Shown piece by piece: positions 691 to 64,000 of a DNA stretch of 64,000 nt. Source of the DNA: Nitrospirota bacterium (GTDB taxonomy: Bacteria; Nitrospirota; UBA9217); contig JAOUEV010000001.1 of assembly GCA_029858565.1 (NCBI GenBank), positions 107,420-171,419 of the forward strand, written 5' to 3'. Position 1 is the stretch's first letter. Every line of letters begins with the position of its first letter. A program made the translations under genes and the position numbers. A model generated the notes under the pieces. The model was not told the origin of the DNA. It saw only the letters and a list, made by a program, of their open reading frames with translations, and did no database searches.

Positions 691-725
691 GTTTTCGCAA
701 AAATCAAGAAGACACGTACTGCTTT

Positions 726-755: not shown

Positions 756-810
756 GGAACGTGTATCGATGCTTCCCCCGTGGCAGGAATATGCTGCGGC
801 GAACAGAGCC

Positions 811-840
811 TTGACCCGCCTTTGCCCATGATGCTAGAAT
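811..840 (+). promoter_or_regulatory. sigma70-like promoter TTGACC-N18-TAGAAT
   Basis: near-consensus -35 and -10 hexamers about 55 nt upstream of ATG 896; the ATG at 839 lies inside the -10 box and is unlikely to be the start. Confidence 0.45.
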
Positions 841-895
841 GCACACTGTTCACCGGCATGGATATCCCGATCATGGCAGCGCATTCTTTCCGTTC

Positions 896-1729: not shown

Positions 1730-1854
1730 TCAGGCCCTATCCTGATCTCGAACACCGTTTTATTCCCGCGCTGATAACGCCTGTTTTATTGACAGCTCTC
1801 GATCAAGTTGGTACTATGTTGCAGTTTGTTGAAGCCGTTCTGAAGGAGAATGAA

Positions 1855-2253
1855 ATGAAGAAACAGATTGTGATGTTGTTCCTGGCAGCAGGTCTCATGA
1901 TCGCCCAGAGCGCATTGGCTGCTGAAACAGCGCCGCTCAGCACTCCGGAGCTGAAGCAGGCCATCGGCGCGGGCAAGAAGAACACGGTTGTTTTCTTTAT
2001 CAACCCCAACGGCGGTCCCTGCAAGGCGCAGAAGGAGATCCTGGTTCAGCTTCAGAAGGACCGGAAGGGGAACTTCAATATTGCCTACGTGGATGCAATG
2101 AACCAGGCGAACCAGAAGGCGTTCTATGACTACGGCGTCAGGAGCCTGCCCACGGTCGTGGTCGTTGACGGGAAGGGCAAGATCGCAAAGTATTTCCCTC
2201 CGGGCATCCAGAGCTACGATGTTCTGGCAAAGACGCTGGACAGCATTAAGTAA
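1855..2253 (+). CDS. periplasmic thioredoxin-like protein (TlpA/ResA-like) with signal peptide
   Basis: AAGGAG SD before ATG 1855; signal peptide MKKQIVMLFLAAGLMIAQSALA; thioredoxin-fold length; redox motif degenerate (GGPC); stop overlaps ccdA start by 1 nt. Confidence 0.65.
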   Translation: MKKQIVMLFLAAGLMIAQSALAAETAPLSTPELKQAIGAGKKNTVVFFINPNGGPCKAQKEILVQLQKDRKGNFNIAYVDAMNQANQKAFYDYGVRSLPTVVVVDGKGKIAKYFPPGIQSYDVLAKTLDSIK

Positions 2254-2897
2254 TGGACCTAGGCATAACAAATATCGGATTGGCAATAGGCGCGGGGCTC
2301 GCAAGCGTGATGTCTCCCTGCGTGCTGCCGGTCGTTCCGGTGATCATGGCGGGGGCGGAGCGGGAAGACCGCCTTCGGCCCCTGCTGATCGTTCTCGGGC
2401 TGTCGCTCATGTTCATGATCATGGGCGCGATCTCGTCGCTCTTTGGCGCGCTTCTGGTCGGAAAGACCCGGTACATCGAACTGACCGGCGCGGTGATCAT
2501 CATGATCATGGGCTTTGTGGTCCTGTTCGATCTCAGCCTGTTCAAGCGGCTCTATCAATTGTCGAACATTCGCGTGAAGGGCGAGGGAAGGTTCTCGGGG
2601 CTTCTGCTCGGCATGGCGCTCGGCCTTGTCTGGGTCCCCTGCATCGGTCCGTTCCTGTCCAGCATCCTCACCATGGTCGGCACGAGCGGAGAGATGGCAA
2701 AGGGTGTTTTCCTGCTCGGATTCTACTCTCTTGGCCTTGCGATCCCCATGCTGATCGTGGCTTATTCCTCACATCTTCTGCAGCGCAAGCTCAGTTCCCT
2801 GGCACGGCATGAAGCGGTATTTCGCTATGTGACCGGCAGCATCCTTATTGCTTTTGGTCTGTACTCCATCCTTGTCGGCAACATCGCCTTCTCGTAA
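2253..2897 (+). CDS. ccdA: cytochrome c-type biogenesis / thiol-disulfide electron transporter CcdA (DsbD beta-domain family)
   Basis: six predicted TM helices with the two conserved Cys motifs SPCVLP and VPCIGP; translationally coupled to the thioredoxin gene. Confidence 0.8.
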   Translation: MDLGITNIGLAIGAGLASVMSPCVLPVVPVIMAGAEREDRLRPLLIVLGLSLMFMIMGAISSLFGALLVGKTRYIELTGAVIIMIMGFVVLFDLSLFKRLYQLSNIRVKGEGRFSGLLLGMALGLVWVPCIGPFLSSILTMVGTSGEMAKGVFLLGFYSLGLAIPMLIVAYSSHLLQRKLSSLARHEAVFRYVTGSILIAFGLYSILVGNIAFS

Positions 2898-3004
2898 CTG
2901 ATTGATATTATAGGTTATAATATCAATTAAATAACCACTTGACAAAAGTCTTGAAATATGGTTCAATTGATTCAATTGAATTGGATGTTTTTAGCGGGAG
3001 CTCT

Positions 3005-3571
3005 ATGGAATTAACGATCAATACCGGAACTTTTGAGCACAAGATCTATCCCATTCGAGGACAGAAGGTCATGCTGGACAGCGACCTTGCTGCTATGTAT
3101 GGGGTGAATATCGGCGACCTGCATCGCGCGGTAAAAAGGAATATGACACGATTTCCCAAGGACTTCATGTTCCAGTTGACACCCGATGAGACCGAAACCT
3201 TAAGATGCCAAACCGGCATCATGGGACTGCGTGAGCATCTTACAGCCCAAAACGCCGGCATAACGCCTGCTCGTGGAAAACAGCGGAAGTATCTTCCCCA
3301 GGTCTTTACTGAACAGGGCGTGGCCATGCTTTCCAGCGTGTTAAAGAGCCGGCAGGCAGCTCACGTCAATACTGCAATCATGCGCACGTTCATCAGTGAT
3401 TCCCGGTTCGCGGTTGTTTTCGATGCCATTCGCGAGTTCATGACTCAGACGGACAAGATCGGTTTCCTTGCCAGGGAAAGCATGTCTGTCTATAAGACAG
3501 TTGCTGAGAGATCATTATTGGCAGCCTCAAAAGCGGATAGGAAAAAGATCCATCATGAGGTTGCACGATGA
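3005..3571 (+). CDS. ORF6N-domain (KilA-N-like, phage antirepressor-type) protein
   Basis: YPIRGQKVMLDSDLAAMYGV motif typical of ORF6N N-terminal domain; GGGAG SD before ATG 3005; local GC about 50%, below flanks. Confidence 0.55.
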   Translation: MELTINTGTFEHKIYPIRGQKVMLDSDLAAMYGVNIGDLHRAVKRNMTRFPKDFMFQLTPDETETLRCQTGIMGLREHLTAQNAGITPARGKQRKYLPQVFTEQGVAMLSSVLKSRQAAHVNTAIMRTFISDSRFAVVFDAIREFMTQTDKIGFLARESMSVYKTVAERSLLAASKADRKKIHHEVAR

Positions 3572-7108: not shown

Positions 7109-8203
<1,095 letters not shown>

Positions 8204-8272
8204 CGCCCGCCGCCGGATAATATTAGAAATTTCGCGCAAGTTAATGTACAATAGAACCACTTGCCGGTCGGT

Positions 8273-8310
8273 CCGGCCGCGTTCAGCGGTCAACGGCCGG
8301 CGCGATTTTT
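8273..8310 (+). terminator. putative Rho-independent terminator after recA (CCGGCCG stem, 19-nt loop, CGGCCGG then GATTTTTCT)
   Basis: 7-bp GC stem followed by T5 tract. Confidence 0.45.
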
Positions 8311-8361
8311 CTGCCCCGCCTGCTTGTCAGGCGTCGGTGCGTCTGGTTTGCGGGAGGTACC

Positions 8362-9579
8362 ATGCAACTGAATGATCTGCTCAAAGCGACGTTCGAAAAA
8401 AGAGCGTCGGACCTGCATCTGAAGGTCGGTGTTCCACCGGTCCTCAGGATCGACGGGAGGCTGGTGCCGCTTGATGCCGAGAAGCGGCTGACCCAGGAAG
8501 ACACGGTCGCGATCGCGTCGGGCATCATGAACCCGGGCCAGAAGGCCCGGTTCAACGAGAAGAACGAGCTGGACCTGGCCTACGCGGTCCCGGGGCTGGG
8601 ACGTTTCCGCGTGAACATATTCAAACAGCGCGGCAGCGTGGGCATGGTATTCCGGTCCGTGCCCGCGAAGATCCTGAACTTCGAGGAGCTGCTCCTGCCC
8701 CCGGTATTGACGAAGGTCGCCCAGGAGCAGCGCGGCCTGATACTCGTGACCGGGACCACGGGAAGCGGAAAATCCACGACGCTCGCGGCCGTGATCGATT
8801 ACATCAACACGGCGCGCACCACGAACATCGTGACCATCGAAGACCCCATCGAGTTCCTGCACCGGGACAAGAAGAGCATTGTGAACCAGCGCGAGATCGG
8901 TTCGGACACCTTCACCTTCGGAGAGGCGCTCCGGAGCGCCCTGCGCCAGGACCCCGATGTCATCCTCGTTGGCGAAATGCGCGACTTCGAGACCATTTCC
9001 ACAGCGCTGACCGCGGCCGAGACCGGCCACCTCGTGCTGTCCACCCTCCATACGGTGGACACTTCCGAGACCGTGAACCGCATCATCAACGCGTTCCCGC
9101 CCTTCCAGCAAAAACAGGTGCGCATGCAGCTGGCATCGGTCATCAAGGCCATCGTTTCCCAGCGGCTGGTCGCGCGCGCTGACGGCAAGGGCCGCGTGCC
9201 TGCCGTGGAAGTGATGCTCGGGACCATGTCGGTGCGCGAAGCGATCATCGACGAGACCAAGACCCGCACCATCCCCGGGATCATATCCTCGGGCATGGTC
9301 CATTACGGCATGCAGACCTTTGACCAGTCCCTTCTTGGCCACTACAAGAAAGGCATCATCACCTACGAGGAAGCGCTCACCATGGCAAGCAACCCCGACG
9401 ATTTCGCGCTCAAGGTCAAAGGCGTGCAGTCTACGAGCGACCTGGCCATGGAAGAGGATGAAAAAAAGAAGTCCGGATCAGGCATACGGGGCACCATCGG
9501 CGGAGCAAAGCCGGCGGCCAAGGAGTCCCCGGGCTCCTCAGGAAACTCGGATTTCAAGATCGACCGGTTCGGCAAGTAG
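8362..9579 (+). CDS. pilT: type IV pilus retraction ATPase PilT (with about 50-aa low-complexity C-terminal extension)
   Basis: Walker A GTTGSGKST, PilT family motifs, AIRNLIRE-like helix; GGGAGG SD; C-terminal tail KKKSGSGIRGTIGGAKPAAKESPGSSG is atypical. Confidence 0.9.
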   Translation: MQLNDLLKATFEKRASDLHLKVGVPPVLRIDGRLVPLDAEKRLTQEDTVAIASGIMNPGQKARFNEKNELDLAYAVPGLGRFRVNIFKQRGSVGMVFRSVPAKILNFEELLLPPVLTKVAQEQRGLILVTGTTGSGKSTTLAAVIDYINTARTTNIVTIEDPIEFLHRDKKSIVNQREIGSDTFTFGEALRSALRQDPDVILVGEMRDFETISTALTAAETGHLVLSTLHTVDTSETVNRIINAFPPFQQKQVRMQLASVIKAIVSQRLVARADGKGRVPAVEVMLGTMSVREAIIDETKTRTIPGIISSGMVHYGMQTFDQSLLGHYKKGIITYEEALTMASNPDDFALKVKGVQSTSDLAMEEDEKKKSGSGIRGTIGGAKPAAKESPGSSGNSDFKIDRFGK

Positions 9580-9618
9580 GCGTGAGACGTGAAACTAAAG
9601 AGGGATAATATCATTTCA

Positions 9619-9649
9619 GGGCGGTCCTCAGTGACCGCCCGTTCAATTT
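9619..9649 (+). terminator. hairpin GGGCGGTC-N-GACCGCCC followed by GTTCAATTT, downstream of pilT
   Basis: 8-bp GC stem; the following tract is only weakly U-rich. Confidence 0.4.
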
Positions 9650-9653
9650 GACC

Positions 9654-10142
9654 ATGGAGCAGGACGACAAGGAACTGAAACGGGCAAAGAACAGCGCCTA
9701 TCGTTTTCTCACCATCCGTCCCCGAAGCAGATACGAGGTCGAGCATAAGCTTCAGGACCGGGATTTCCCCTCGGACATCATCACTTCCGTCATTGATCAT
9801 CTTATCAGGCTTGGCTATCTTGACGATCGAAGGTTTGCGGCCCAATGGGCAGCGAGCCGTGTACGGACGCGCGGATTCGGCAGACGCAGGATCGAGCAGG
9901 AACTTTACACCAAGGGGATCAGCCGTGAACTTATCACCGATACCCTGAGGGAGCTCTTTTGCGACGAGCCGGAGCTTGATGTGGCGCGCAAGGAGGCGGA
10001 AAAGAAGCTTCGTTCCCTCGGACGGTTCGACCCGGAGGTCCGGAAGCGGCGGCTTGCCGGGCATCTGGAGCGGAAAGGATTCCCTGCGGAGATAATCGGG
10101 AAAGTCCTGAGGGAGACGGGCCGTGACCGACGCGAACCTTGA
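9654..10142 (+). CDS. recX: recombination regulator RecX
   Basis: three-repeat helical RecX architecture; ORF-track TTG start at 9648 replaced by in-frame ATG 9654. Confidence 0.8.
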   Translation: MEQDDKELKRAKNSAYRFLTIRPRSRYEVEHKLQDRDFPSDIITSVIDHLIRLGYLDDRRFAAQWAASRVRTRGFGRRRIEQELYTKGISRELITDTLRELFCDEPELDVARKEAEKKLRSLGRFDPEVRKRRLAGHLERKGFPAEIIGKVLRETGRDRREP

Positions 10143-47453: not shown

Positions 47454-48959
47454 TTATATCAGGTCGGGCGACGGGCGCTTGATGTAATATCCCTGTGCGT
47501 AATGGATGCCTGCGGTCCTGACCTGGTCCAGGATGCCCTCGGACTCCACGTATTCGGCGATGGTCTTGATCTTAAGACGGTTTGCGAGGGCGGCGATGCT
47601 CGTGACGATCTCCTTCTCGATCGAGCCTCCGCCGTGAAGGGTCCTGATGAACTCGCCGTCGACCTTGAGGAAGTCCACGTCAAAGGTCTTGAGATAATGG
47701 AACGAGGAATAGCCCGCGCCGAAGTCGTCGATGGCGAAGCGGAAACCCTCGTCCTTGAGCTTGCGGACGAAATCCTCGATCAGGCTGACGTTCTTGACCG
47801 TGTCCCGCTCGGTGATCTCGAAGACCATGCTCGCCGGGGGGATGTCGTAGTCCCTGAACAGCGCCTTGAGCGTGGGAATGAAATCGGCGATCACCAGCGC
47901 TTTGGGCGAAAGGTTCAGGAATAGCGTGCCCGGATAGTTCCGCTCCTTCACGATGGTGAAGGCCCGCTCGATGAGCTGGTAATCGATCTTGCCGATTGCG
48001 CCCATGTTCTCGGCTGCCTCGATGAAGTCGGCCGCGGGGATGATCTTGTCGTCCACGATGATGCGGGTCAGCACTTCGTAGGCCAGGACGCTCTTGTCGT
48101 CCACGCTGACGATGGGCTGGAAATAGGGGACGATCTTTTTTCTCTTATGGCTGTGGATGGCGTCAAGGATCATGATGCTCGTTTCCCCGAGGTTCTTGAT
48201 CATATCCACGTTGTCCCGCTCGCTCGGAAAAGCCATATGGTCCTTGCCCGAGGTCTTTGCCTGGGCGAGCATGCTGTCCGCCAGCATGAAGAGGTCCCGG
48301 GCATCCTGAGCATGGCTGGGGAAGACCGCCACCCCGATGGAGATCGTTTCCTGCATTACCGCTCCGTCCGGCAGGGTGATAGAATGGTTTCGCAGGCTTT
48401 CCATGATACGATGGGCGACCACATAGGCCTGCTCTTCGTCGCAGACCGGCAGAATGGCCGTGAAGTTGTCACCGCCGAACCGCGCCGGGATGTCTCCCTT
48501 GCGGACGGCCGCCCTGAGGATGGCGGAAAAATCCCTGAGGAATCGGTCCCCGATCTCATGGCCGTAAGTGTCGTTGATGATCTTGAAATTGTCCACGTCG
48601 ATGTGGAGGAGCGAGAACTTGTACTGCTGCCGGCGGGAGCGCTGGGTCTCGTACTGAAGCAGGTCCCAGAAGGTGCGTTGGTTGTACAAACCCGTGAGCG
48701 CGTCGCGGGTCGCGGATTCTTTCGCCTCGTCCGAGTAGCGGTTCAGCGCGCGCATGAGAAAAAGATTGCTGATGATCGGGAACGGCGCGAAACAGAGCAG
48801 GAGGACCGTCATGGTCTTTCGCGGCAGCCAGGTCGTCTCCCTGCCGCTGAACAGCACGGCGGCCGCGGCAGCGATCAGAAGAAGGGTCAGAAAGATCGCG
48901 CCTATAAACAAGCACATCTTGATCTTTTTGAGGTTTTTTTCGCTTTTTGGTTCCGGCAT
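47454..48959 (-). CDS. membrane-anchored GGDEF-EAL (diguanylate cyclase/phosphodiesterase) protein
   Basis: N-terminal TM helices, GGDEF variant RFGGDNFTAILP, EAL domain (EVLTRI, DDFGAGYSS, EGVE); start set at MPEPKSEK (ATG 48959). Confidence 0.85.
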   Translation of the reverse strand: MPEPKSEKNLKKIKMCLFIGAIFLTLLLIAAAAAVLFSGRETTWLPRKTMTVLLLCFAPFPIISNLFLMRALNRYSDEAKESATRDALTGLYNQRTFWDLLQYETQRSRRQQYKFSLLHIDVDNFKIINDTYGHEIGDRFLRDFSAILRAAVRKGDIPARFGGDNFTAILPVCDEEQAYVVAHRIMESLRNHSITLPDGAVMQETISIGVAVFPSHAQDARDLFMLADSMLAQAKTSGKDHMAFPSERDNVDMIKNLGETSIMILDAIHSHKRKKIVPYFQPIVSVDDKSVLAYEVLTRIIVDDKIIPAADFIEAAENMGAIGKIDYQLIERAFTIVKERNYPGTLFLNLSPKALVIADFIPTLKALFRDYDIPPASMVFEITERDTVKNVSLIEDFVRKLKDEGFRFAIDDFGAGYSSFHYLKTFDVDFLKVDGEFIRTLHGGGSIEKEIVTSIAALANRLKIKTIAEYVESEGILDQVRTAGIHYAQGYYIKRPSPDLI

Positions 48960-49125
48960 GGAACAATGAACTCCCCGCAACAGATCGTATTTAGAGAATA
49001 GCCGTGAAGCCTGATCTTTGTCAACCCCGCGGATGAAATAATACAAGACATACTTGTACACCTCGAACGTGCATGGCCGATCCGGGGCAGGAGGCGGGCA
49101 GGGGGAGAAAAAACTTGCGTGAGCG

Positions 49126-50706
49126 ATGGAAAAAAGGGACAATGGCGCCATGTTGATCGGGTCATTGAAGCGGGCGGTCGCCCAGATGGTCATGCCGCGC
49201 ATTGACGGCGAAAAGCTTGCAGATGCCGCGTATCGGGGAGAGATACATAAGCTTGCCGAGGAAGGTATCGGCGGGTTCATTCTCTTTGGCGGAGACATCA
49301 AAAGCACGCCTGCCTACCTTGCGGAGCTGCAGGCCAAGGCGGAGCACCGCTTGCTCATCTCCTCGGATGTGGAGCGGGGGCTTGGGCAGCAGCTTGCCGG
49401 CGGGACCCGGTTTCCCAGCCAGCGGGCCGTGTCAGCGGCGATCGACCGGCGGTCGAAAAAGGACAGCGATCTCCTGAACCGCATGCTCGACGCGGTCAGG
49501 ACGGAGTCCCGGGCAGCGGGGATCCATATCGTGTTCTCGCCGGTCATGGATGTGAACAACAATCCCGACAATCCCATTATCTGCACCCGCGCCTTTGGCG
49601 ATGATCCGCAGACCGTGGAGTGGTTCGGCAAGCAGTATATCCGGAGGCTCCAGAAGCCCCGTTCCAACGGTGACCTCGACCTTCTTGCCTGCGCCAAGCA
49701 TTTTCCCGGCCACGGGGACACGGACCAGGATTCTCACTCCGTTCTTCCGGTGATCCGCGCGGACAAGGCAAGGCTGAACCGGGTGGAGCTGCCGCCGTTC
49801 CGCGAGGCGGTCAAGGACGGCGTGGGTACGGTGATGATCGCCCACCTCTTGGTGCCGGCGCTCGATCCGACAAAACCGGTGACCTTCTCGAAAAAGGTGG
49901 TGACCGCGCTGCTTCGCGAAGGCATGGCCTTCGAAGGGCTCATCGTATCCGACGCGCTGGACATGGGAGCCCTGGCGAACGAATATCCCCAGGGCGAGAT
50001 CGCGATCCGCGCTGTAGAGGCCGGTATGGACATCCTGCTTCATCCCGTGGACGCCCGAGTGACCGTGGAAGCGGTCGTGCGTGCCGTGGAGCAGGGAAGG
50101 CTCACCCAGGAGCGAATCCAGGAATCCGTGGACCGGATCATGGGGATGAAGAAGAAACTGGGGATCTTGAATGATGCTGCACCAGTGAATGCGAAGCTCG
50201 ACTATGAAAAACACCGCAAGATAGCGCAGGAGATCTCCCGCAGGGCGGTCACCGTGGTGCGGGGGAGCAAAGGGATGCTTCCCCTTGATGCTGATAAAGG
50301 CGCGGCATGCTTCATCCTGGATGACGATTCCCAGGGCAGAGGCGAAGCATTCCAGCAGGAACTGATGGCGCGATTCGTCGACGCGACAGTGACCACGCTT
50401 ACCCCGGACGCATGTGAAGCCGCTTTGTCATCCCATCTGGATATCAGCAGAGCCGGCGCTGCGGTGATCGCCATATTCTCCCGCATATCCGCTTCCAAGG
50501 GCAGGTCCGGCATCTCGCCGAAGCTTCGGGACGCGGCAATCGAGCTGCTGAAGCGCGCGAAAGCCGCGGGAAAGCCATCGGTGGTCATTTCATTCGACAG
50601 CCCTTATATTCTGGACCAGTTCAAGGACGCTGGCCTGCATATCGCCTGCTATGACCGGATGGACGAGATACAGAGGGCGGCAGCAGAGAAACTAGTAAAG
50701 GGCTAA
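49126..50706 (+). CDS. nagZ: glycoside hydrolase family 3 beta-N-acetylhexosaminidase (NagZ-like) with C-terminal extra domain
   Basis: GH3 N-terminal motifs (KHFPGHGDTDQDSH, SDALDMGA); 526 aa. Confidence 0.85.
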   Translation: MEKRDNGAMLIGSLKRAVAQMVMPRIDGEKLADAAYRGEIHKLAEEGIGGFILFGGDIKSTPAYLAELQAKAEHRLLISSDVERGLGQQLAGGTRFPSQRAVSAAIDRRSKKDSDLLNRMLDAVRTESRAAGIHIVFSPVMDVNNNPDNPIICTRAFGDDPQTVEWFGKQYIRRLQKPRSNGDLDLLACAKHFPGHGDTDQDSHSVLPVIRADKARLNRVELPPFREAVKDGVGTVMIAHLLVPALDPTKPVTFSKKVVTALLREGMAFEGLIVSDALDMGALANEYPQGEIAIRAVEAGMDILLHPVDARVTVEAVVRAVEQGRLTQERIQESVDRIMGMKKKLGILNDAAPVNAKLDYEKHRKIAQEISRRAVTVVRGSKGMLPLDADKGAACFILDDDSQGRGEAFQQELMARFVDATVTTLTPDACEAALSSHLDISRAGAAVIAIFSRISASKGRSGISPKLRDAAIELLKRAKAAGKPSVVISFDSPYILDQFKDAGLHIACYDRMDEIQRAAAEKLVKG

Positions 50707-56052: not shown

Positions 56053-56628
56053 ATGGCAACGAAAAGGTTTTTGGTTCTAGTTCTGGTATGTGTTGCAGCA
56101 GTAGCGATAGGTGGCTGTGGTTCGAGCAGTACCTCGTCCGGACCGCAGGCATATACTCAGGACACGCTTGATTCTGATACTGTGTGGGCAGTCAATACCG
56201 GAATGGTAAGCATCTATAACAACAACCTCGCTGGCAAGCCTACGGGGTCGCAAAATATGCCTAATAAAAACTGCGCACTTGGCGGGACAGTATCAATCAC
56301 AGGCACCACGACATATGATTCGATTCATGGGATCACAACAGTTGACCTGACCTATGCACTTTCGAATTGCAGGTTTACCAGCGCAAGCGGATCGCTCTCG
56401 GTCACACTCACAATGAACGGCACCATGACGCACAGCGGATTTTTCAGCTCCAGCAGCAAGGATGAGATCTTTTCATCTAACGGAGCAAATGTGAGCATTG
56501 TAGGAACTGCTGAGAGGACGGGCTATATTGATGGGACGATCAACGAGAATTGCACTTATTATGCTCAGTCAAAGACCAGTTCTGTGACCGGGTCGATCTG
56601 CGGCAGGGATGTTTCCTGGACCTATTAG
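56053..56628 (+). CDS. lipoprotein of unknown function (Ser/Thr/Gly-rich), low-GC (about 47%)
   Basis: signal peptide with lipobox AIGG-C; AGGGAGG SD; composition differs from flanks. Confidence 0.55.
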   Translation: MATKRFLVLVLVCVAAVAIGGCGSSSTSSGPQAYTQDTLDSDTVWAVNTGMVSIYNNNLAGKPTGSQNMPNKNCALGGTVSITGTTTYDSIHGITTVDLTYALSNCRFTSASGSLSVTLTMNGTMTHSGFFSSSSKDEIFSSNGANVSIVGTAERTGYIDGTINENCTYYAQSKTSSVTGSICGRDVSWTY

Positions 56629-56656: not shown

Positions 56657-56690
56657 AAGCCGCCGAAATCCTGTTCGGCGGCTTTTTAAT
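56657..56690. terminator. bidirectional hairpin AAGCCGCCGAA-ATCCTG-TTCGGCGGCTT plus TTTTAATTT between convergent lipoprotein and pseudopilin genes
   Basis: 11-bp stem; T-tract on + strand; overlaps stop of the minus-strand pseudopilin ORF. Confidence 0.55.
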
Positions 56691-57402
56691 TTGCCGCGGG
56701 AGCGGCTGCCGGTCGGGGAAGGACCGCACCTGGTTGCTGCTGCGGTGCAGTATACACGAACTTCCACTCGTTGTACTTGGTCTTTCCCTCGAATTCCCTG
56801 TTCTCGTCCGGGAAGTCCGCCTGCTTGAACGGTTCCTTGTCACTTGAACTGTATACGCCGATGAGCCTGTTCCCCTTGGTCTGATCGCGCAGCAGCTCGA
56901 AATCCTCGCCGGTGATGGGGTCCTTGTACTTCTGCCGGAGATGGCGTTTTCCCCGTGCCGTACGCCCGTCGCTCAGCAGGTCATCGATGTTCCGAGGATA
57001 CTCGAGCCTGCCCGGGATGGCCGTAGTGTAACGCTCGATGGCCAACCGGTACTGGTTGCCCCGGAACAGCAGTTCCTCCTCTTTTTCCCTTGCCATGACC
57101 GCCTGCCAGTACTTTCCCGCCGCGCCCATTGAGATGCCGATGATGACAATTGCCGCAAGCAGCGCGATGTAGGTGAAACCGGAAGAAGTGCGGAGTGCGG
57201 AGTGCGGAGTGCGGAATAAGAAACGGCGGATCTGGTGAGGAACATCCGGCCGGGGGATGTGGTGTTGATTTTTCTCCTCGTCGCAGGTGACGAAGCGAAG
57301 GGTCACGTGCTCCGGCGCGTCATTCACTTCGCACTTCGCACTCCGCACTCCGCACTGCGTCTTCATTCCATCTTCCTCTGGCTTACAAAGGCGCCATCGC
57401 AT
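56686..57402 (-). CDS. GspG/PulG-like type II secretion pseudopilin (prepilin-type N-terminal domain); true start uncertain
   Basis: G-FTYIALLAAIVIIGI hydrophobic prepilin helix (Ala instead of Glu at +5), GspG-like globular region (RGNQYRLAIERYT, DPITGEDFELL); ORF 5' 220 nt consists of heptamer-repeat sequence and overlaps the upstream gene by 40 nt. Confidence 0.55.
   Translation of the reverse strand: MRWRLCKPEEDGMKTQCGVRSAKCEVNDAPEHVTLRFVTCDEEKNQHHIPRPDVPHQIRRFLFRTPHSALRTSSGFTYIALLAAIVIIGISMGAAGKYWQAVMAREKEEELLFRGNQYRLAIERYTTAIPGRLEYPRNIDDLLSDGRTARGKRHLRQKYKDPITGEDFELLRDQTKGNRLIGVYSSSDKEPFKQADFPDENREFEGKTKYNEWKFVYTAPQQQPGAVLPRPAAAPAAN
57188..57359. repeat. inverted pair of heptamer-repeat blocks ((GTGCGGA)x4 at 57188..57217 and its complement (CACTTCG/CACTCCG)x4 at 57325..57359) separated by about 107 nt
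   Basis: read directly; arms are reverse-complementary; lies within the 5' extension of the pseudopilin ORF. Confidence 0.75.
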
Positions 57403-60400
57403 TTATACTGCACATCAACAGTGTTCTTTCGGTCCCCTGCTCCGGAACCCTGAAGCAGGTAGAGGATCCGCTGGGGCTGCTGGTCAACGGTGAGATCAAA
57501 GACCACGGCCCCGTTCCTGACAGCGCTGTTCCTGTTCGCCCAGAGAAGCTTCACGTCTTTGGGGAGAGGCACCGATATCCGCGCAGCGACCTGACCCGCG
57601 GCGGCGGCAACGGACAGATGGCCAGGGATGACCGTCCCACTCTCATCCGGCCGGGGGACCGAAGTGAAAATGACCGCGCGCACCAGAAGGCTGTAAGGCG
57701 TTGACGTTCCGGCGGCCAGCGCGGAACGGATAAGGGAGAAGGGCATGACAATGAGCTTTCCGGCGCCTTCGGTAGCCGCGAGGACCGCGGGCTGATCGTT
57801 GGAGTAGACCGCGACGGCCCTGCCTTCTTTCCGCGAAGGGATAAAGGCCGGCTTGCCGAAGGGGAGGGTCCCGTTCAGGCCGAGGGGGGAATCGCCGGGG
57901 AAGGTTATGTATGCGGCATCGGCCGCAGTCGCGTACTGGAACCCGAACTGTTCGGCAAGGGAGCGGGAACGGTCATTGGAGCCGGACAGGACCACGACAT
58001 GGCCGCGGCCGAGAACCGTGCGGAGCGTTTCCAGCGTGTCGAGGGTGCTGTCGATGTCGATCAGCAGGTACATGGTATAAAGTCCGGTCAAAGCCTCGCG
58101 GGAAAACGCTTCCGCCGAAGTGACGGTCTTGAGGTAAATGCCCTCCTGGGCAAAGGCTTCGCGGAGCAGCTTTTCGGAAAGAGCGCGTTCGATCGACGTG
58201 TCGCTCTCTCCGCCGGTCCAGACAAGGAGCCGCGGAAGTGGCGCTGCTATCGGCGTCACCACGACCGGTCCCCGCACGACCAGAGGCCGCTCGTCGAGGA
58301 GGACGTCGCCGCTGGTGCCCGGTTTATTCCCGATCACCGACGCCCGCAGGGAAATGGCATAGTCCCCTCCGGGAAAGTCCACGCGGGCGATCTGATGGGT
58401 CTGTTCGCCCATGACCAGAGGCAGCTGAATGGCATGGACCCGCTGGCCGATCCCCGCGGTCCGGATCTCGAGTTTGACCGAGCCGCCGGTGAAGGGAATG
58501 GTTCCGCTATTGCGGACAGCATAGCGCACCAGGAGCGGCTGGCATGGAGATGCCACGGGGTCGGTTCCGGCGAGCGAACCTTTGACCGAAAGTGTCGGTC
58601 TGATGACCAGTCCCACGGAATCCGCCGAAAGGACCGTGCCGCTCACTTCGGTCCGCGCGTCGACCAGGTAGACGCCCTCCTGCAGCGCTCCAGAAGCCAG
58701 AGACCGGTCGAACTGCCGCATGCCGCCCGATTCGAAGGCCACCACGGGAACAGACTCGGTGGAAACCGCTTTGCCCGACGGATCGCTGATATGGAGCGTA
58801 AGGTTCAGCAGGGGGATGGTCCGTGCCGTGAAGTTGGCGACCGCGACCTGGTAATTGATCTCGTCGTCTGCGGCAAAGGATTCCTGCCGGGGTATGACCT
58901 CCAGAAGAACATCGGGGATCTCGAGCGCCAGGGCGAACTGGTTGTTGCTTTTGTCGGTCTCCAGGACAGCATTCTCGCTGTCCACGGCGGCCGTGAGCGA
59001 ACGGGCACCCGCTTTTCCCGCGAGTTTCCAGGGTACAACAATGACATGCTGGCTTCCCGGTTCGAGCGGCGGGACCTCAAAGTGCGTGATGCGCTGTCCC
59101 CCTTTGCCCGGATCGCCTTCGTAGAGCGAGGCCCTGGCCTTGCCCGAAGGCACTTTGCCGCGGTTCGCGACGCCGACACCGATCTCCATGAAAGGCGCTT
59201 TTATCGCCGAGACCTGGATGGTCGCGATCAGGTCCGGAAGCCGGGCGCCGAAGGTGATTGCTGCTTCGCGGCTGTCTCCGGGTCCGCTGGAGGAAAGCGC
59301 GGCGCCGATGCGGTGCACGCCCTGGGTCATCCGGCCGGGGGTGAACGATATCTTTGCGATCCCGGGTTTCGGGAACTTCTCCCGCTGCACCCGCTTGCCG
59401 TCGACCAGGAGTTCCAGTGCCGCTCTGGTCCTGATGTAGGCTGTCGCGGACATGACGATAGGGCCGCGTGCCTCGTAATAGACCGGCCTGTCCGTTGAGA
59501 GCGCCAGGATCGCAGCCTCGCCTGCATCGATGAACAGCTGGCCGGAGGAAAGATCCCTCGGCTCATCAGGGAAACCGGGACCCTCGGGAAGAACCGCCGC
59601 GATATTATAGCGGAGGCGCCAGATACCGGCGCGGTCCATTGCCGCGGGGAGCGCAAGGGAAAGGTCATTGGGGCCGGAGGTCAGGTTGATCGACCTTGTC
59701 TGTTCAGCCCGCTGCCGGCCCGCGGGATCAATGAGCCGAAGCCGGATGACCGCCGGGAGCCCGGCGGAGGACTCGACGCGGAGGACGGCCTGTGCCTGCG
59801 GCCCTGCGCCTGCTTCCCAGCGGATGTCGGTGCACCGCGCCTCCGCGCCGATGATCGCGACAGAGAGCGTTCCCTCGCGGCGGCCGCCGGTCCGGGTGAG
59901 AAAAGCCCAGGACAGGGGGTACAAGCCCGAAGGAAGGCCTTCGGGGATAATGATCTCAAAGCTCCGGTTTGAGCTGATATGCTCGCTCATTTCCGTTCCC
60001 AGGGCGCTGAAGGAAAAGGCGCCGAGCCCCAATCCCGTTGCAGAGATCCGGGCCTTTTGTCCGGGCGCATACCAGGGACGGTCAAAGGAGACATTGCCGC
60101 CAGTCGCTGTTCCGGGATCCACGGCGCCCCTGGCCAGTGATCTGCCGCTGGCGTGGTAGACCGCGTACACGACCGGCGACGGGTCTGCGGCGCCGTCCAT
60201 ATCAAAGACAACCTCGGTCCGCTCTCCGGTCAACTGGAAATATCTTTCCTGCCCGGCTGCGCGTGCAATAAGGTCTGCGGCGGCTGTTGTTGCCCCCGTC
60301 CTTCTGATGTCCAGAAGAAGCCGGAGGCCGCCGCGCTGCGCGGTCACGGACGGCTGCACGGAGATGCCGAGGGGCGCTGCGGGGTAGGGTTTTGCCTGGG

Positions 60401-61565
60401 GAGGCACCGTGGACAGCGCTGCACGCGAGGTCACTGCGAACCATCCTTCCGATGACTCGCTCAAGGGGGAAAGGACCCGCTTCCCGTCGTGCAGGCGGTA
60501 CTGGAGATGATAGATCCCCGGTTCGGCGTCGCGGGGGAACGTGGCGGAATAGGACAGAAGCGCGGTCTGTCCCGCTGCAACGTTAAGGTGGAAGATGGCC
60601 TCATCGCGGCGTCTGTCCGGTGAAGGGCCGACGATCCGCACGCCGACGATCTCAGCAGTGCCGGCTTCAGGACCGCTTATCCTGAGGGTTGCGGCCACCG
60701 GTTCCCCGGGAACCGCGGTCCGCACCTTACCTCCCGCTTTTGCCCAGAGCACCAGATCGCGCACCAGTTCCTGCTCTTCAGCATGGAGCTGGCCACGGGC
60801 AGCGGAGTAATCGCTCATGAGCGTCGTGGCCGCGACCCATCCTTTTCCCAGGGGATAGACGATCAGGGTGGCGCGGCCGTCGGGACGGGCCAGCAGGACC
60901 TGCCCTTCTTCAGGGTAACCGGTCAGATAGCCGTCGGTCTCCAGCGCAGGCGATGTCCTTCGCTGCGATGCCAGTGCCGGGTGGGATGCACGGAGCAGCG
61001 ATGCCCTGAACAGCGATCCGCTGTCCTCGGCCCAGCCCACGCCGGTGATCCCGGTCGTAGCGTTTTCCGGGACCGGCAGGCTGGCGAAGTCCGCGCCGGT
61101 CTGCTGGGTGAAGCAGATCACCACGCCCCCGGAGCGAACATACTCGGCGAGACCCGCCTGAAAGTACCGTGATGCGCGCAGTCCTGCCAGGCCGCCCGAG
61201 GGAATGAGCAGGACCGGTTTGTGGGAGGCCAGTCCCGCGACGTCGCCGGGTTCCACGAACAGCAAGGATTCCCGGAACCCGGCCAGCATCCCGGGCCAGG
61301 GCGCGGAGAGCCCGTTCCGCAGAACAGCGATATCCGGGCCTGCCTTGATCTCCTCCGCAAGGGTCTGGTCGATAATGCCCTTGCGAAAGCCGGTCCGCAG
61401 GGACCACGAGGGCTCGGGTTCCGGCTGCTGAAGCGCGGGAGCGACGCCCATCCACGGTCCGCCGGGGTGGTCAGCGAGCGAAAGGGGGTCCTGGGCCGGA
61501 GCGGAAGAAGGCACTCCCGTCAGGAGCGAGACAAAGAGTATGACGATGATCGAGATGCGATTCAT
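57363..61565 (-). CDS. giant (about 1400 aa) secreted protein with signal peptide and multiple CARDB/Ig-like beta-sandwich repeats; function unknown
   Basis: signal peptide MNRISIIVILFVSLLTGVPSSAPAQD (start set at ATG 61565); CARDB-like segment ...EPGSQHVIVVPWKLAGKAGARSLTAAVDSENAVLETDKSNNQ...; Ala/Gly/Arg-rich, no catalytic motif recognised. Confidence 0.55.
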   Translation of the reverse strand: MNRISIIVILFVSLLTGVPSSAPAQDPLSLADHPGGPWMGVAPALQQPEPEPSWSLRTGFRKGIIDQTLAEEIKAGPDIAVLRNGLSAPWPGMLAGFRESLLFVEPGDVAGLASHKPVLLIPSGGLAGLRASRYFQAGLAEYVRSGGVVICFTQQTGADFASLPVPENATTGITGVGWAEDSGSLFRASLLRASHPALASQRRTSPALETDGYLTGYPEEGQVLLARPDGRATLIVYPLGKGWVAATTLMSDYSAARGQLHAEEQELVRDLVLWAKAGGKVRTAVPGEPVAATLRISGPEAGTAEIVGVRIVGPSPDRRRDEAIFHLNVAAGQTALLSYSATFPRDAEPGIYHLQYRLHDGKRVLSPLSESSEGWFAVTSRAALSTVPPQAKPYPAAPLGISVQPSVTAQRGGLRLLLDIRRTGATTAAADLIARAAGQERYFQLTGERTEVVFDMDGAADPSPVVYAVYHASGRSLARGAVDPGTATGGNVSFDRPWYAPGQKARISATGLGLGAFSFSALGTEMSEHISSNRSFEIIIPEGLPSGLYPLSWAFLTRTGGRREGTLSVAIIGAEARCTDIRWEAGAGPQAQAVLRVESSAGLPAVIRLRLIDPAGRQRAEQTRSINLTSGPNDLSLALPAAMDRAGIWRLRYNIAAVLPEGPGFPDEPRDLSSGQLFIDAGEAAILALSTDRPVYYEARGPIVMSATAYIRTRAALELLVDGKRVQREKFPKPGIAKISFTPGRMTQGVHRIGAALSSSGPGDSREAAITFGARLPDLIATIQVSAIKAPFMEIGVGVANRGKVPSGKARASLYEGDPGKGGQRITHFEVPPLEPGSQHVIVVPWKLAGKAGARSLTAAVDSENAVLETDKSNNQFALALEIPDVLLEVIPRQESFAADDEINYQVAVANFTARTIPLLNLTLHISDPSGKAVSTESVPVVAFESGGMRQFDRSLASGALQEGVYLVDARTEVSGTVLSADSVGLVIRPTLSVKGSLAGTDPVASPCQPLLVRYAVRNSGTIPFTGGSVKLEIRTAGIGQRVHAIQLPLVMGEQTHQIARVDFPGGDYAISLRASVIGNKPGTSGDVLLDERPLVVRGPVVVTPIAAPLPRLLVWTGGESDTSIERALSEKLLREAFAQEGIYLKTVTSAEAFSREALTGLYTMYLLIDIDSTLDTLETLRTVLGRGHVVVLSGSNDRSRSLAEQFGFQYATAADAAYITFPGDSPLGLNGTLPFGKPAFIPSRKEGRAVAVYSNDQPAVLAATEGAGKLIVMPFSLIRSALAAGTSTPYSLLVRAVIFTSVPRPDESGTVIPGHLSVAAAAGQVAARISVPLPKDVKLLWANRNSAVRNGAVVFDLTVDQQPQRILYLLQGSGAGDRKNTVDVQYKCDGAFVSQRKME

Positions 61566-61685
61566 AGGAATTATCAGGCCGTGAGATGGATGCCCTGAGA
61601 CGTGAAATGGCAGAGGTGAGACGCGATTTTCCGGACGACCCGGCGATTTTCTCCTCACGCCTGACGTCTTGCCTTTCCGGTGGCG

Positions 61686-63404
61686 CTACTCAATGAACGT
61701 GACCCGGTTGATCTCCTTGAGCGTGGTATCTCCGGCCAGGACCTTTGTGACGGCGGACTGGCGCAGGGTGGTCATGCCTTCGGCAATGGCGATCTTTCTG
61801 ATCTCCGAGGACGGCCGTTTCTCAAGGATCATCTCACGGATGCGGTCCGAGAGGTCGAGGAATTCGGTGATAGCTTTCCGTCCGCGGAAGCCCGTGTAGT
61901 TGCATTCTTTGCAGCCCGCGGCGTCGAAAAACTCATGGTCACGATAGCGTTCGAACTCCAGGGCCGAGTCTTCAAGGTCCTTCCGCGCCAGGGTTACCTT
62001 CTTTTTGCAGCGCGGACAGAGCATGCGGACCAGGCGCTGGGCCAGGATGCAGTTCAGCGCGGAAACGAAGTTGTACGGCTCGATGCCCATGTTCAGGAAG
62101 CGGCCGAGCACATCAAAGGCATTGTTCGCGTGGACCGTGGTGAACACGAGGTGGCCGGTCAGCGCCGACTGGACGGCGATCTGGGCGGTCTCGGCGTCGC
62201 GGATCTCGCCGACAAGGATCTTGTCCGGGTCGTGGCGCAGGATCGACCGGAGGCCGCGCGCAAAGGTGAGGCCCTTCTTCTCGTTCACCGGGATCTGGAC
62301 CACGCCGCGGAGCTGGTATTCAACCGGATCCTCGATGGTGATGATCTTGTCCTCGCCCGTGTTGATCTCCGTGAGCGCCGCGTAGAGCGTGGTCGTCTTG
62401 CCGCTGCCCGTGGGTCCGGTGACGAGCACCATGCCATAGGGTTCCCGAATGCTCTTCCGGAACCGCTTGAGATCGTTCTCATCGTGTCCCAGGCTTTCGA
62501 GCTTGAGGGTGCTCACGCCGGCGGTGATGGATTCCTTGTCCAGGATGCGGATCACGATGTCCTCGCCGAAGGACGAGGGCATGATCGAGACGCGGAAGTC
62601 GATCGTCTTGCCGGCGGTTCGGAGCTTGAACCGACCGTCCTGGGGCACGCGGCGTTCGGCGATGTCCAGATCGCTCATGACCTTGATGCGCGACACGATT
62701 GCGCTGTGATACGCCATGTCAATGGGCTCGGTCGCCGGGTAGAGGACGCCGTCGATGCGGTACTTGATGATGACGTTCTTGTCCGTGGCCTCGATATGGA
62801 TGTCGCTGGCCCTGCGCTGGATGGCGTCGAAGACCGTGGTATGGACCAGCTTGATGATGGGGCTCTCGTCCTTGTCGATGGTTTCGAGCGACAGGACCTC
62901 CTCGCCGTCCTCCTGCTCCTTCACGATCTGGAACTTGAAGTCCTCGGACATCTCGTGGAGCACCCGCTCCGACGTGCCGCTCCGTTTGAGCGTGTCATCG
63001 ATCGCCGACGGAGAGCTGACACACACCTCGATCTGGCGCTGGAGCAGCATCTCCAGTTCGTCGATGGCCGGGATATTGTTCGGGTCCGCCATGGTGATCA
63101 CCAGCGTCTCGCCCGAGTCCTCCAAGGGCACGAACTGGTAGCGCTGCATCACGTCCACGGAGATCAGCTCGTTGAACTTGGGATTGATGCGGAAATCCGT
63201 GAGGTCAACGTACCGGAGATCGCGCTGCTCGGCAAGGGACTGCGCGAGCATCTCCTCGGTGATCAGTCCTTCGGCAAGGAGGATCTCGCCGATGCGCTTC
63301 TGGCGGTTGTCCGACTTTGCCAGGGTCTCGTCGATGCGGGCGGCGCTGACGACCCCTTTTGCGGCGAGGATCTCGCCCAACCTTCTCCTGCGGAACGACG
63401 TCAT
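61686..63404 (-). CDS. pilB: type II secretion / type IV pilus assembly ATPase (GspE/PilB family) with N-terminal GSPII_E_N domain
   Basis: Walker A GPTGSGKTTT, Asp box, His box, tetracysteine CPRCKK...CKEC; 572 aa; ATGA overlap with upstream gspF/pilC. Confidence 0.9.
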   Translation of the reverse strand: MTSFRRRRLGEILAAKGVVSAARIDETLAKSDNRQKRIGEILLAEGLITEEMLAQSLAEQRDLRYVDLTDFRINPKFNELISVDVMQRYQFVPLEDSGETLVITMADPNNIPAIDELEMLLQRQIEVCVSSPSAIDDTLKRSGTSERVLHEMSEDFKFQIVKEQEDGEEVLSLETIDKDESPIIKLVHTTVFDAIQRRASDIHIEATDKNVIIKYRIDGVLYPATEPIDMAYHSAIVSRIKVMSDLDIAERRVPQDGRFKLRTAGKTIDFRVSIMPSSFGEDIVIRILDKESITAGVSTLKLESLGHDENDLKRFRKSIREPYGMVLVTGPTGSGKTTTLYAALTEINTGEDKIITIEDPVEYQLRGVVQIPVNEKKGLTFARGLRSILRHDPDKILVGEIRDAETAQIAVQSALTGHLVFTTVHANNAFDVLGRFLNMGIEPYNFVSALNCILAQRLVRMLCPRCKKKVTLARKDLEDSALEFERYRDHEFFDAAGCKECNYTGFRGRKAITEFLDLSDRIREMILEKRPSSEIRKIAIAEGMTTLRQSAVTKVLAGDTTLKEINRVTFIE

Positions 63405-64000
63405 TTTATTCTCGCCCCCATTTCGAAGATCGGCAGATAAAGAGCCACCACGATCACGGCGATCACGACGCCCATGGTAAGCATGAGCACCGGTTCGATC
63501 ATGGTCGTGAGCATGGTGAGGCGGCTCTCGACCTCCTGTTCATAGAAATCCGATACATCCTCGAGCATCTGCGGCAGGTCGCCTGACGATTCCCCCACCT
63601 CGATCATGCGCACGGTCATGTCCGGCGCCAGCCTGGTGCGCTCAAAGGAGTTGGCCAGGCCGACGCCCTCGGTCAGGAGCTGGCGTGACTCCCGCAGACG
63701 AAGCGCGATAACTCGGTTCGCCACCACGCCTGCCGTGGTGTCCAGCGCCTGGACCAGCGGAATGCCCCCCCGGAGCAGCGTGGCCAGGGTCCGCGTGAGC
63801 TGGGCAAGGATATACTGCATCAGGAGCGACCGCACGAGGGGAATGGCGAGGACAAGCCGGTCGACGGACATCCGTCCCTGATCCGTGCGGTACCACAGGC
63901 GAAGCCCGATGCCGCCGCCGACGATCAACAGCGCCAGGAAGGGCGCCAGAGCGGACAGCGTGTCAGCGAACCCGATCATCAGGGTGGTGAGGAACGGGAG
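63401..64000 (-). CDS. pilC: type II secretion system F / PilC platform protein, C-terminal part (N-terminus beyond window end)
   Basis: second T2SSF domain with 2 TM helices; ORF continues past 64000. Confidence 0.8.
   Translation of the reverse strand, partial: LPFLTTLMIGFADTLSALAPFLALLIVGGGIGLRLWYRTDQGRMSVDRLVLAIPLVRSLLMQYILAQLTRTLATLLRGGIPLVQALDTTAGVVANRVIALRLRESRQLLTEGVGLANSFERTRLAPDMTVRMIEVGESSGDLPQMLEDVSDFYEQEVESRLTMLTTMIEPVLMLTMGVVIAVIVVALYLPIFEMGARIK

Follow-up and report, generated by a model that had tools for sequence, protein, structure and literature searches.

A divergent type IV filament locus of Nitrospirota with a Glu5-less prepilin and an optional giant secreted protein

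Results

Gene content and order of the locus

At one end of the analysed window, a 64,000-nucleotide stretch from a Nitrospirota bacterium, four co-directional genes on the minus strand encode, in order, a platform protein of the PilC/GspF type, a PilB-like ATPase, a giant predicted secreted protein and a prepilin (Table 1). The original prediction had placed the same four genes here, had called their order non-canonical and had noted two gene overlaps; each of these points is confirmed, and most extend to related loci. The order platform-ATPase-giant-pilin is conserved in more than 20 Nitrospirota lineages, with at least 14 species-level genomes and many metagenome contigs. The platform stop and the ATPase start share an ATGA at 63401-63404, a 4-nt overlap that recurs in 26 of 27 distinct related loci. 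A second ATGA, at 57366, joins the stop of the giant gene to the ATG of the pilin gene and is found in 24 of 32 distinct loci, including those in which the giant is reduced to a 450-aa short form. The platform frame runs open past base 64000, with no stop before it, and the gene is therefore cut by the window end.

In relatives that share the synteny of the window, the operon is flanked by housekeeping genes and not by gsp or pil genes; the window locus, its own upstream flank being read from theirs, is therefore unlikely to be the trailing end of a canonical gsp or pil operon. The original prediction had named a full operon of this kind upstream as one of two outcomes that would refute its reading; such an operon does lie upstream in some relatives, and not in those syntenic with the window. 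In many genomes, one of them represented by a 1.3-Mb contig, the platform, ATPase and pilin genes stand alone among housekeeping genes. Exact-sequence look-ups connect the giant only to a 5-kb Logan contig and return no matching record for the window ATPase and pilin. Predicted promoters and terminators along the operon are about as numerous as in shuffled sequence, and literature searches for this architecture in Nitrospirota return nothing relevant.

Table 1 Coordinates of the features in the window
Feature	Position	Strand	Open reading frame	Basis or remark
Platform protein PilC/GspF, C-terminal 199 residues	63401..64000	-	63401..>64000	Pfam T2SSF 103.8 bits
PilB-like extension ATPase, 572 aa	61686..63404	-	61686..63404	Pfam T2SSE 443 bits and MshEN 68.6 bits
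Predicted MshEN tandem 24-residue c-di-GMP-binding motifs, ATPase residues 8-60	63225..63383	-		NF053729 48.4 bits, cutoff 38
Predicted giant secreted protein, 1400 aa from M32	57363..61565	-	57363..61658	Frame open up to GTG 61658
N-terminal alpha/beta head, giant residues 50-280	60726..61418	-		Class-I glutamine-amidotransferase-like / ThuA-like fold
About eight Ig-like beta-sandwich domains, giant residues 281-1107	58245..60725	-		Contains the sole Pfam CARDB match, 58935-59210
C-terminal module, giant residues 990-1400	57366..58598	-		Ig domain, second GATase1-like domain without Cys, terminal beta-sandwich
Prepilin without Glu5, start M13	56686..57366	-	56686..57402	ATGA overlap with giant stop; mature from F at 57177, ~163 aa
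Long hairpin, (GAGTGCG)n / (CGCACTC)n arms	57184..57356	-		Within the leader-coding part of the pilin gene
GGDEF-EAL protein	47454..49307	-		Pfam GGDEF and EAL
PilT-family retraction ATPase	8362..9579	+		TIGR01420 474 bits, cutoff 319

The motor pair and a predicted c-di-GMP receptor domain

The PilB/GspE-family ATPase and the PilC/GspF platform of the type IV filament core set are both present. Against TIGR02120 (GspF), the platform fragment scores 168.9 bits over profile positions 204-399. Full-length orthologs in relatives have 395-398 aa, and the one in L048 reaches 309 bits, below the GspF equivalog cutoff of 424; the window copy is truncated. The ATPase lies under both NCBIfam equivalog cutoffs, with 589 against 675.65 for PilB (TIGR02538) and 546.7 against 630.25 for GspE. 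Its closest solved structures are the PilB proteins of Geobacter and Myxococcus (476-458 bits, full-length), GspE scoring 371, and identity among the ATPases of related loci is 77-88%.

The N-terminal motif pair of the ATPase reads RLGEILAAKGVVSAARIDETLAKS-DNRQK-RIGEILLAEGLITEEMLAQSLAEQ. When compared with the published definition of the 24-residue MshEN c-di-GMP motif (PMC5013675), motif II matches, with Ile replacing the Leu of RLG, and motif I matches a relaxed form, with Ala at a hydrophobic position, Ile for Leu and Ser for Gln. By this tandem motif the ATPase fits the MshEN receptor domain and is predicted to bind c-di-GMP. With this N-terminal domain and a tandem motif that scores above the NCBIfam cutoff, it resembles the MshE-type ATPases of the MSHA pilus and the PilB of Myxococcus and Geobacter; unlike in the MSHA pilus, the remaining msh gene set is missing here. 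The GGDEF-EAL gene also lies downstream of the operon, in synteny, in L002 and on the P0009 contig, and its product is a candidate c-di-GMP input to the operon.

A Glu5-less prepilin related to GspG

The prepilin combines a class III signal peptide with a hydrophobic alpha-1 helix, which aligns with PilE and PilA from residue 1. Its processing motif, SSG before and FTYIALLAAIVIIG after the cleavage point, with Ala at +5, is the sole motif of this kind in the 64 kb, and the family alignment gives R/S-x-G ahead of FTYIALLAAIVIIG. Pfam N_methyl and TIGR02532 remain sub-threshold for the window protein. The Ala in place of Glu5, previously likened to tip pseudopilins, is present, and the loss extends across the family: 91 of 92 members lack Glu5, as cap pilins do, and have A, G, F, S or a similar non-acidic residue at +5.

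The protein had also been described as a GspG-like pseudopilin, a relationship seen at the level of an intermediate profile and not at the level of Pfam or NCBIfam, where no GspG match is obtained. With hhalign, only the N-terminal helix aligns with E. coli GspG alone, and nothing aligns with E. coli GspH. The GspG relationship is visible only through a profile composed of Nitrospirota GspG-like pilins and E. coli GspG, to which the pilin aligns at 97.3% (E 2e-11, 109 columns); judged by this comparison, the pilin is probably a GspG-fold paralog. In other gene contexts, members of the family lie immediately behind a gene for a GspG-like protein that has Glu5. The pilins without Glu5 known from characterised systems, such as PilX and GspK, are tip caps and not bulk subunits (PMC7541494, PMC10191384). 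Because of its probable GspG-type fold and the near-complete absence of Glu5 from its family, the window pilin looks like a cap subunit and may occupy the cap position. The GspK Pfam domain finds no match in it, and its mature length of ~160 aa compares with about 300 aa for the GspK type.

The hairpin in the leader-coding region has a dG of -98.7 kcal/mol (z -8.1). Across 56 related loci no such structure is kept (median z -0.2), and a conserved regulator was therefore dropped as its explanation; it is a lineage-specific repeat element and not a family feature.

Architecture of the giant protein

The start of the giant at M32 follows public annotation, in which an identical protein (P0001, 100%) has 1400 aa, and all 38 homologs are ~1400 aa long. 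The N-terminus is of the Sec type, as read by eye from the sequence and from an AlphaFold2 helix at residues 4-15, in line with the signal peptide originally assigned. The AlphaFold2 models (pLDDT 81 and 88) consist of about nine Ig-like beta-sandwich domains flanked by two glutamine-amidotransferase-like (GATase1-like) alpha/beta domains. The expected series of CARDB-like repeats was overstated; one CARDB domain is recognised by sequence, with a single significant Pfam match of 42.7 bits (cutoff 22.7). This one clear domain is shared with CARDB cell-surface proteins, but it makes up only ~7% of the giant, and that family shows neither two GATase1-like domains nor this operon context. For alpha-2-macroglobulin, MG2 is sub-threshold (25.9 bits against 32.8) and no thioester domain matches. 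No PilY1, vWA or pilin-like domain is found in the giant, Pfam gives no match to the PilY1 beta-propeller, and the C-terminal half matches GATase1-like and CARDB folds; the giant and PilY1 are not homologs.

Conservation is highest in the N-terminal head, whose fold is that of the class I glutamine amidotransferase / ThuA-like group. Of a candidate catalytic Cys-His(-Glu) triad, C151 is placed where a strand ends and a helix follows; both C151 and H195 are invariant, also in distant phyla, and E209 is not kept. Neither hhalign with E. coli HisH nor a PDB profile search gives a sequence-level alignment of the head from which equivalent catalytic residues could be read. The whole giant family was found in no position but the one flanked by this ATPase and this pilin, in lineages whose copies share 33-52% identity. 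Omnitrophota and Desantisbacteria also have giant surface proteins that carry its N-terminal domain, with neither ATPase nor pilin nearby, so that the earlier concern about a family living apart from pilus genes applies to this domain and not to the complete protein.

The giant is an optional occupant of the ATPase-pilin slot

At the same syntenic site in relatives, the platform, ATPase and pilin genes occur without the giant or with the 450-aa short form, and giant-bearing, short and giant-less forms interleave on the ATPase tree. The giant, originally taken for an integral part of the locus, is dispensable; it has been lost repeatedly, and the filament therefore works without it. Since it is repeatedly absent and the relatives possess a normal secretin, a role as secretin substitute or machine part was rejected. 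The short forms retain only residues 990-1400, which makes this C-terminal module the operon-tied part of the protein; we propose that it is a docking module. The slot itself varies in content, being empty or holding 450 aa, 1400 aa, or 1400 aa together with four low-GC genes for further signal-peptide proteins, as in L009. No column of the pilin family alignment discriminates giant-bearing from giant-less lineages; hence no giant-specific interface is visible, and a pilin surface particular to giant-bearing lineages was set aside.

Further machine genes in the window and in relatives

In L048, L052 and L089, the platform-ATPase-pilin trio directly adjoins genes for a TPR-secretin, for two GspG-like pilins that have Glu5, and for PilM-like and PilO-like proteins, and the secretin is adjacent to the trio in L048, L052 and L109. 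The secretin and the platform score best on GspD and GspF models. The trio thus belongs to a larger machine, contrary to the first description of a compact, minimal machine with a single pseudopilin. Within the 64-kb window, no secretin, prepilin peptidase or Glu5 pilin is found, and PilM, PilN, PilO, PilP, PilQ and a major pilin are absent. GspC, GspL and GspM are not detected in the window or in the relative loci, and an E. coli GspO query for the prepilin peptidase gives no match in the window or in any relative locus examined. The separate pilT gene lies, as first reported, between recA (7109-8203) and recX (9648-10142), and its product may act as a partner in this filament system.

Discussion

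The locus is a variant of a known machine type and not a new machine. We tentatively favour, with somewhat less than even confidence, a model in which it represents the motor-plus-cap part of a divergent Nitrospirota type IV filament system with an optional passenger, the giant sitting on the cap as an analog of PilY1. PilC and the PilB-like ATPase, predicted to sense c-di-GMP, would polymerise Glu5-bearing GspG-like pilins whose genes presumably lie at another site of this genome and, in some relatives, beside the trio. The Glu5-less GspG-fold pilin, whose gene comes after those of the motor, would prime assembly and become the filament cap. The giant would be exported by Sec, with its synthesis tied to that of the cap pilin by the overlapping ATGA of stop and start, and would dock on the cap via its conserved C-terminal module of ~410 residues. 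The cap may then carry the giant through the secretin, so that the Ig-like stalk and the conserved GATase1-like head are displayed at the filament tip. The giant would thus act as a functional, non-homologous PilY1 analog or as cargo. Most likely the pilus either bears the giant or exports it, and a tip adhesin or dedicated cargo, the role first suggested for it, is still the best reading. The operon-tied module, the conserved head and the ATGA coupling speak for the model; the repeated loss of the giant, the lack of a giant-specific pilin column, the absence of PilY1-type domains and the absence from the window of a secretin, a prepilin peptidase and a Glu5 pilin speak against it.

The PilY1-PilX pair of Myxococcus xanthus and Pseudomonas aeruginosa offers a close precedent for such an arrangement, in that there, too, the gene for a Glu5-less pilin has beside it one for a large non-pilin protein carrying a type I signal peptide, and PilY1, like the giant, has a conserved C-terminal portion and an N-terminal one that can be separated from it. 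A PilB-like ATPase and PilT are also common to type IVa pili. The differences lie in the domains, since the beta-propeller and vWA of PilY1 give way to GATase1-like and Ig-like domains, in the GspG fold of the pilin, in the single cap pilin in place of the FimU-PilVWX set, and in the gene order, the giant/pilin pair lying with the motor genes and not in a separate minor-pilin operon.

A type II-secretion-style system is possible though unlikely. A short pseudopilus, with the Glu5-less pilin in the role of GspK, would contact the giant, together with the four additional L009 proteins, push it through the secretin and release it. The GspK-capped pseudopilus shares with the present system pilins of GspG type, a Glu5-less subunit, a secretin and platform best matched by GspD and GspF, and an operon-encoded secreted protein, and the variable content of the slot between ATPase and pilin also speaks for this reading. 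Contact with substrates has been proposed for GspK, and the term analog of T2SS substrates has been applied to PilY1 (PMC7541494). However, the ATPase is nearer PilB than GspE and carries the predicted c-di-GMP-binding MshEN domain, the relatives have PilM and PilO while the GspC, GspL and GspM components are missing, PilT is present, the ~160-aa pilin has no GspK domain and the gene order is F then E. Stop/start coupling to the pilin and the retention of one C-terminal module point more to a stable complex than to a transient substrate.

It is improbable that the giant is an ordinary multi-domain surface or periplasmic protein, independent of the filament, in a permissive site of a pilus operon. 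Its repeated loss without change in the pilin and the Omnitrophota and Desantisbacteria proteins that share its N-terminal domain would fit such a passenger, and L009 demonstrates that foreign genes can enter the same slot. Yet the full-length family keeps to this single position despite its divergence, and the ATGA coupling persists even after truncation to 450 aa.

Least expected is a self-sufficient Com-like machine, perhaps periplasmic, that consists of platform, ATPase, a Glu5-less major pilin docking independently of Glu5, and a prepilin peptidase only. Four core proteins are enough for the Com pilus of monoderms, a minimal type IV filament (PMC10191384); the isolated trios noted above, in which the operon of many genomes comprises only platform, ATPase and pilin, and the single pilin of the window are in keeping with this. 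The phylum here is diderm, however, with relatives that encode the trio alongside two Glu5 pilins, secretin, PilM and PilO, the platform gene precedes the ATPase gene, and the pilin family follows a Glu5-bearing gene elsewhere in the manner of a minor pilin and lacks Glu5, as caps and not bulk subunits do in characterised systems. Because the giant is optional, machine genes lie next door in relatives and the pilin is cap-like, we do not regard the locus as a self-sufficient minimal machine. An equally slim chance is given to a stand-alone diderm filament of platform, ATPase and Glu5-less bulk pilin, which would need docking chemistry without the salt bridge from Glu5 to the N-terminus and would deliver a giant whose GATase1-like head, in which a Cys and a His are invariant, is an active enzyme.

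If the favoured model fails, the locus reduces to a divergent pilus operon of the ordinary kind in which a surface protein has hitch-hiked. If it holds, a large Sec-exported protein on a Glu5-less cap pilin would be a second, unrelated solution to the task of PilY1. The natural forms without passenger, with the 450-aa module, with the 1400-aa protein or with extra secreted genes constitute ready controls for the loading of non-pilin proteins onto type IV filaments. Current domain libraries miss a family of small, Glu5-less pilins of probable GspG fold, a giant protein family marked by two GATase1-like domains, and a filament system, predicted to be gated by c-di-GMP, of an uncultivated and environmentally widespread Nitrospirota lineage.

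Motor genes and their surroundings

The interval 56686-64000 is occupied by four genes, all on the minus strand, and the open reading frames together with the Pfam T2SSF and T2SSE matches bear out this co-directional locus as originally noted. The platform protein gene (PilC/GspF) is truncated by the window end, its frame running on past base 64000 with no stop, and at its other end its stop codon overlaps the ATPase start as ATGA. The best PDB matches of the ATPase are the PilB proteins of Geobacter and Myxococcus, over the full length (476-458 bits), with GspE lower (371 bits); among the NCBI equivalog models it lies under the cutoff for PilB and for GspE alike. A tandem c-di-GMP-binding motif spans residues 8-60 (NF053729, 48.4 bits, cutoff 38). 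Read by comparison, motif II fits the published motif, with Ile replacing the Leu of RLG, and motif I agrees with its relaxed form (PMC5013675). The GGDEF-EAL gene of the window keeps its downstream position in distant relatives (locus L002 and the contig of protein record P0009), and L002 has an additional GGDEF gene immediately upstream of the platform gene, an arrangement that hints at c-di-GMP acting locally on the ATPase through its MshEN domain.

Genes recA and recX are ordinarily neighbours. In the window a PilT-family retraction ATPase is interposed between them (TIGR01420, 474 bits, cutoff 319), where pilT had been placed.

Features of the locus and of its neighbourhood in the window
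Feature	Position	Strand	Details
recA-pilT-recX	7109-10142		
GGDEF-EAL gene	47454-49307	minus	
Predicted lipoprotein	56053-56628	plus	191 aa; convergent with the pilin gene
Prepilin gene	57366 (ATG) to 56686	minus	ATG overlaps TGA of the giant gene; mature pilin from F at 57177
Heptamer hairpin	57184-57356	minus	arms (GAGTGCG)n / (CGCACTC)n; within pilin leader-coding DNA
Giant protein	57363-61565	minus	P0001, OEW15_00930; 1400 aa; annotated publicly as hypothetical, in a Nitrospirota MAG
Signal peptide	giant N-terminus		
Alpha/beta domain 1 (head)	giant residues ~50-280		AlphaFold2
Eight beta-sandwich domains	giant residues ~281-1107		AlphaFold2
Alpha/beta domain 2	giant residues ~1108-1303		AlphaFold2; Cys missing
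Terminal beta-sandwich	giant residues ~1304-1400		AlphaFold2
ATPase	61686-63404	minus	572 aa; T2SSE 443 bits and N-terminal MshEN domain
Platform protein	63401 to window end	minus	last 199 codons; T2SSF 103.8 bits

A GspG-like pilin without Glu5

The orthologs of the window pilin at 12 loci share the N-terminus R/S-x-G|FTYIALLAAIVIIG and then REKEEELLFRG-QY, behind leaders of ~17 to >40 residues. Across the 92 family members identified, position +5 of the mature pilin is most often Ala (69); a further 22 have Gly, Phe, Ser or some other non-acidic residue there, and a single member has Glu. The window pilin is recognised by no Pfam or NCBIfam model, and the alignment of the family profile with type IV pilins is confined to the N-terminal helix. 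It is matched by the second pilin of the Nitrospirota locus L048 (E 2.7e-7, 143 residues), which passes Pfam T2SSG and N_methyl and shares 31% identity with E. coli GspG. When profiles are compared, the family matches Nitrospirota GspG-like pilins plus E. coli GspG with a probability of 97.3% (E 2e-11, 109 columns). Together with the +5 counts, these matches make the window pilin a probable paralog with the GspG fold, from a family in which Glu5 is characteristically lost. Where filaments have been characterised, a subunit lacking Glu5 (PilX, GspK) caps the filament and initiates its assembly (PMC7541494; PMC10191384).

The hairpin in the leader-coding DNA has a dG of -98.7 kcal/mol (z -8.1). 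No conserved hairpin structure was found in related pilin loci, where the same leader site holds different short repeats translated as 'FRIPHSALR' or 'IRNPKSEIRN'; it is not a family feature and looks like a REP-type element tolerated inside a long prepilin leader. Distant members of the family carrying 'ELLFRG' (38-48% identity) occur without motor genes at L099, L100, L104, L107, L109 and L111, several directly following a GspG-like gene that has Glu5, again away from any motor genes. The L109 member retains Glu5; a secretin and two pilin genes lie ~6 kb away on the other strand. The predicted lipoprotein beside the window pilin has a lipobox-like ...IGGC and is Ser/Thr-rich; a family search returned nothing above threshold.

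Architecture of the giant protein

The giant was modelled by AlphaFold2 in two halves that overlap, from 21 aligned sequences in each case (pLDDT 81 and 88). The models and domain searches uphold the expected beta-sandwiches; neither a PilY1 propeller nor a thioester domain is present, and a vWA domain and a pilin-like N-terminus are likewise missing. The head is the best-conserved region, with 46/231 residues invariant, and C151, Q154, H195 and D211 are retained in domains of 30% identity that belong to giant surface proteins of Omnitrophota and Desantisbacteria. In the model, C151 stands at a strand end ahead of a helix, the position expected of a nucleophile elbow; a comparison with E. coli HisH and a PDB profile search brought no confirmation of a catalytic arrangement.

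GATase1-like domains of the head type, with the same Cys/Gln/His, lie in very large surface proteins of those phyla (L019 2752-10167; L020-L027), one of them 2471 aa long with PKD domains. L025 has two copies, one without the Cys. No pilus ATPase or pilin was found near the head-domain genes of L019-L027.

A variable slot between ATPase and pilin

In the scan of species-representative genomes, the giant is restricted to Nitrospirota and invariably lies between the ATPase (77-88% identity) and the pilin (46-75%), its own identity being 33-46%; the unusual order ATPase-giant-pilin, noted in the window, recurs in every giant-bearing genome of that scan. Scanning metagenomes with the pilin as seed yields four operon forms. 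The slot between ATPase and pilin holds the 1400-aa giant in form A, is empty in form B (a 25-316 bp gap, including a 1.3-Mb contig at the same syntenic site), and in form C holds a 450-aa protein made of a signal peptide and giant residues 990-1400. Form A+ (L009) has four additional low-GC signal-peptide genes before the giant. These genes (L009 3483-9332; the contig is also L034) encode proteins of 426, 412, 208 and 861 aa with weak Glucodextran_B and PKD matches only, and the block looks like a foreign insertion in the same variable slot. Forms A and B are intermixed on the ATPase neighbour-joining tree, from which the giant appears to have been lost several times, repeated gain being less likely. 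The giant stop and pilin ATG overlap as ATGA at 24 of 32 distinct loci, form C among them.

The window and some of its relatives share a phosphoribosyltransferase, NnrU and GGDEF-EAL downstream. A canonical operon upstream had been named as a possible finding, and the relatives divide on it: those sharing the window synteny have housekeeping genes upstream of the platform gene, among them genes for histone-deacetylase-like, shikimate kinase, AMMECR1, polyprenyl synthase and TrpRS proteins, whereas relatives such as L048 have a secretin, pilins and PilM/PilO there. L048 comprises nine co-directional genes, for a TPR-secretin, two Glu5 pilins (one T2SSG-positive), PilM-like and PilO-like proteins, a 206-aa protein, platform, ATPase and the Glu5-less pilin; L052 and L089 hold the same set in divergent arrangement. 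The L048 secretin (1070-3439) is a lipoprotein-like fusion of N-terminal TPR repeats, STN/N0/Secretin_N, secretin core and a C-terminal cohesin-like domain (Pfam Cohesin, 33 bits). No secretin, prepilin peptidase or second pilin was found in the 64-kb window. The compact minimal machine with a single pseudopilin gives way to these fuller clusters, and by gene content the trio of platform, ATPase and pilin is evidently not a whole machine.

A proposed passenger at the filament tip

Our preferred reading, put forward tentatively, is that the operon provides both motor and cap for a divergent type IV filament under c-di-GMP control, with the giant as a passenger carried to its tip. Where present, the giant would be produced co-ordinately with the cap pilin, anchored by its C-terminal module, and transported to the filament tip with the conserved head exposed. 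On this reading the giant parallels PilY1 with its partner PilX in having a signal peptide, a C-terminus that is conserved and proximal, an N-terminus that is distal and separable, and a partner lacking Glu5 (PMC7541494), but the folds of PilY1 and the giant are unrelated and the likeness is functional.

The nearest alternative, rather unlikely in our estimate, is that the giant is cargo released in the manner of a T2SS; the variable slot content and the GspG/GspD/GspF affinities favour release, but the PilB-like ATPase, PilM/PilO, PilT and the stop/start coupling point to retention. It is more doubtful still that the giant is functionally unlinked to the filament, as the pilin's want of giant-specific columns and the head domains found elsewhere without pilus genes would allow. 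Least likely of these is a stand-alone minimal machine whose filament would be built mainly of the Glu5-less pilin.

A description of this operon architecture was not found in the searchable literature, and public annotation in the family reads only 'hypothetical', 'CARDB domain-containing' or 'GspH family / PulG'. What is new is a type IV filament whose tip or cargo protein is non-homologous and whose cap pilin is unusual; it is no new kind of system. The natural series of slots, from empty through short and long to expanded, is its most useful feature for follow-up.
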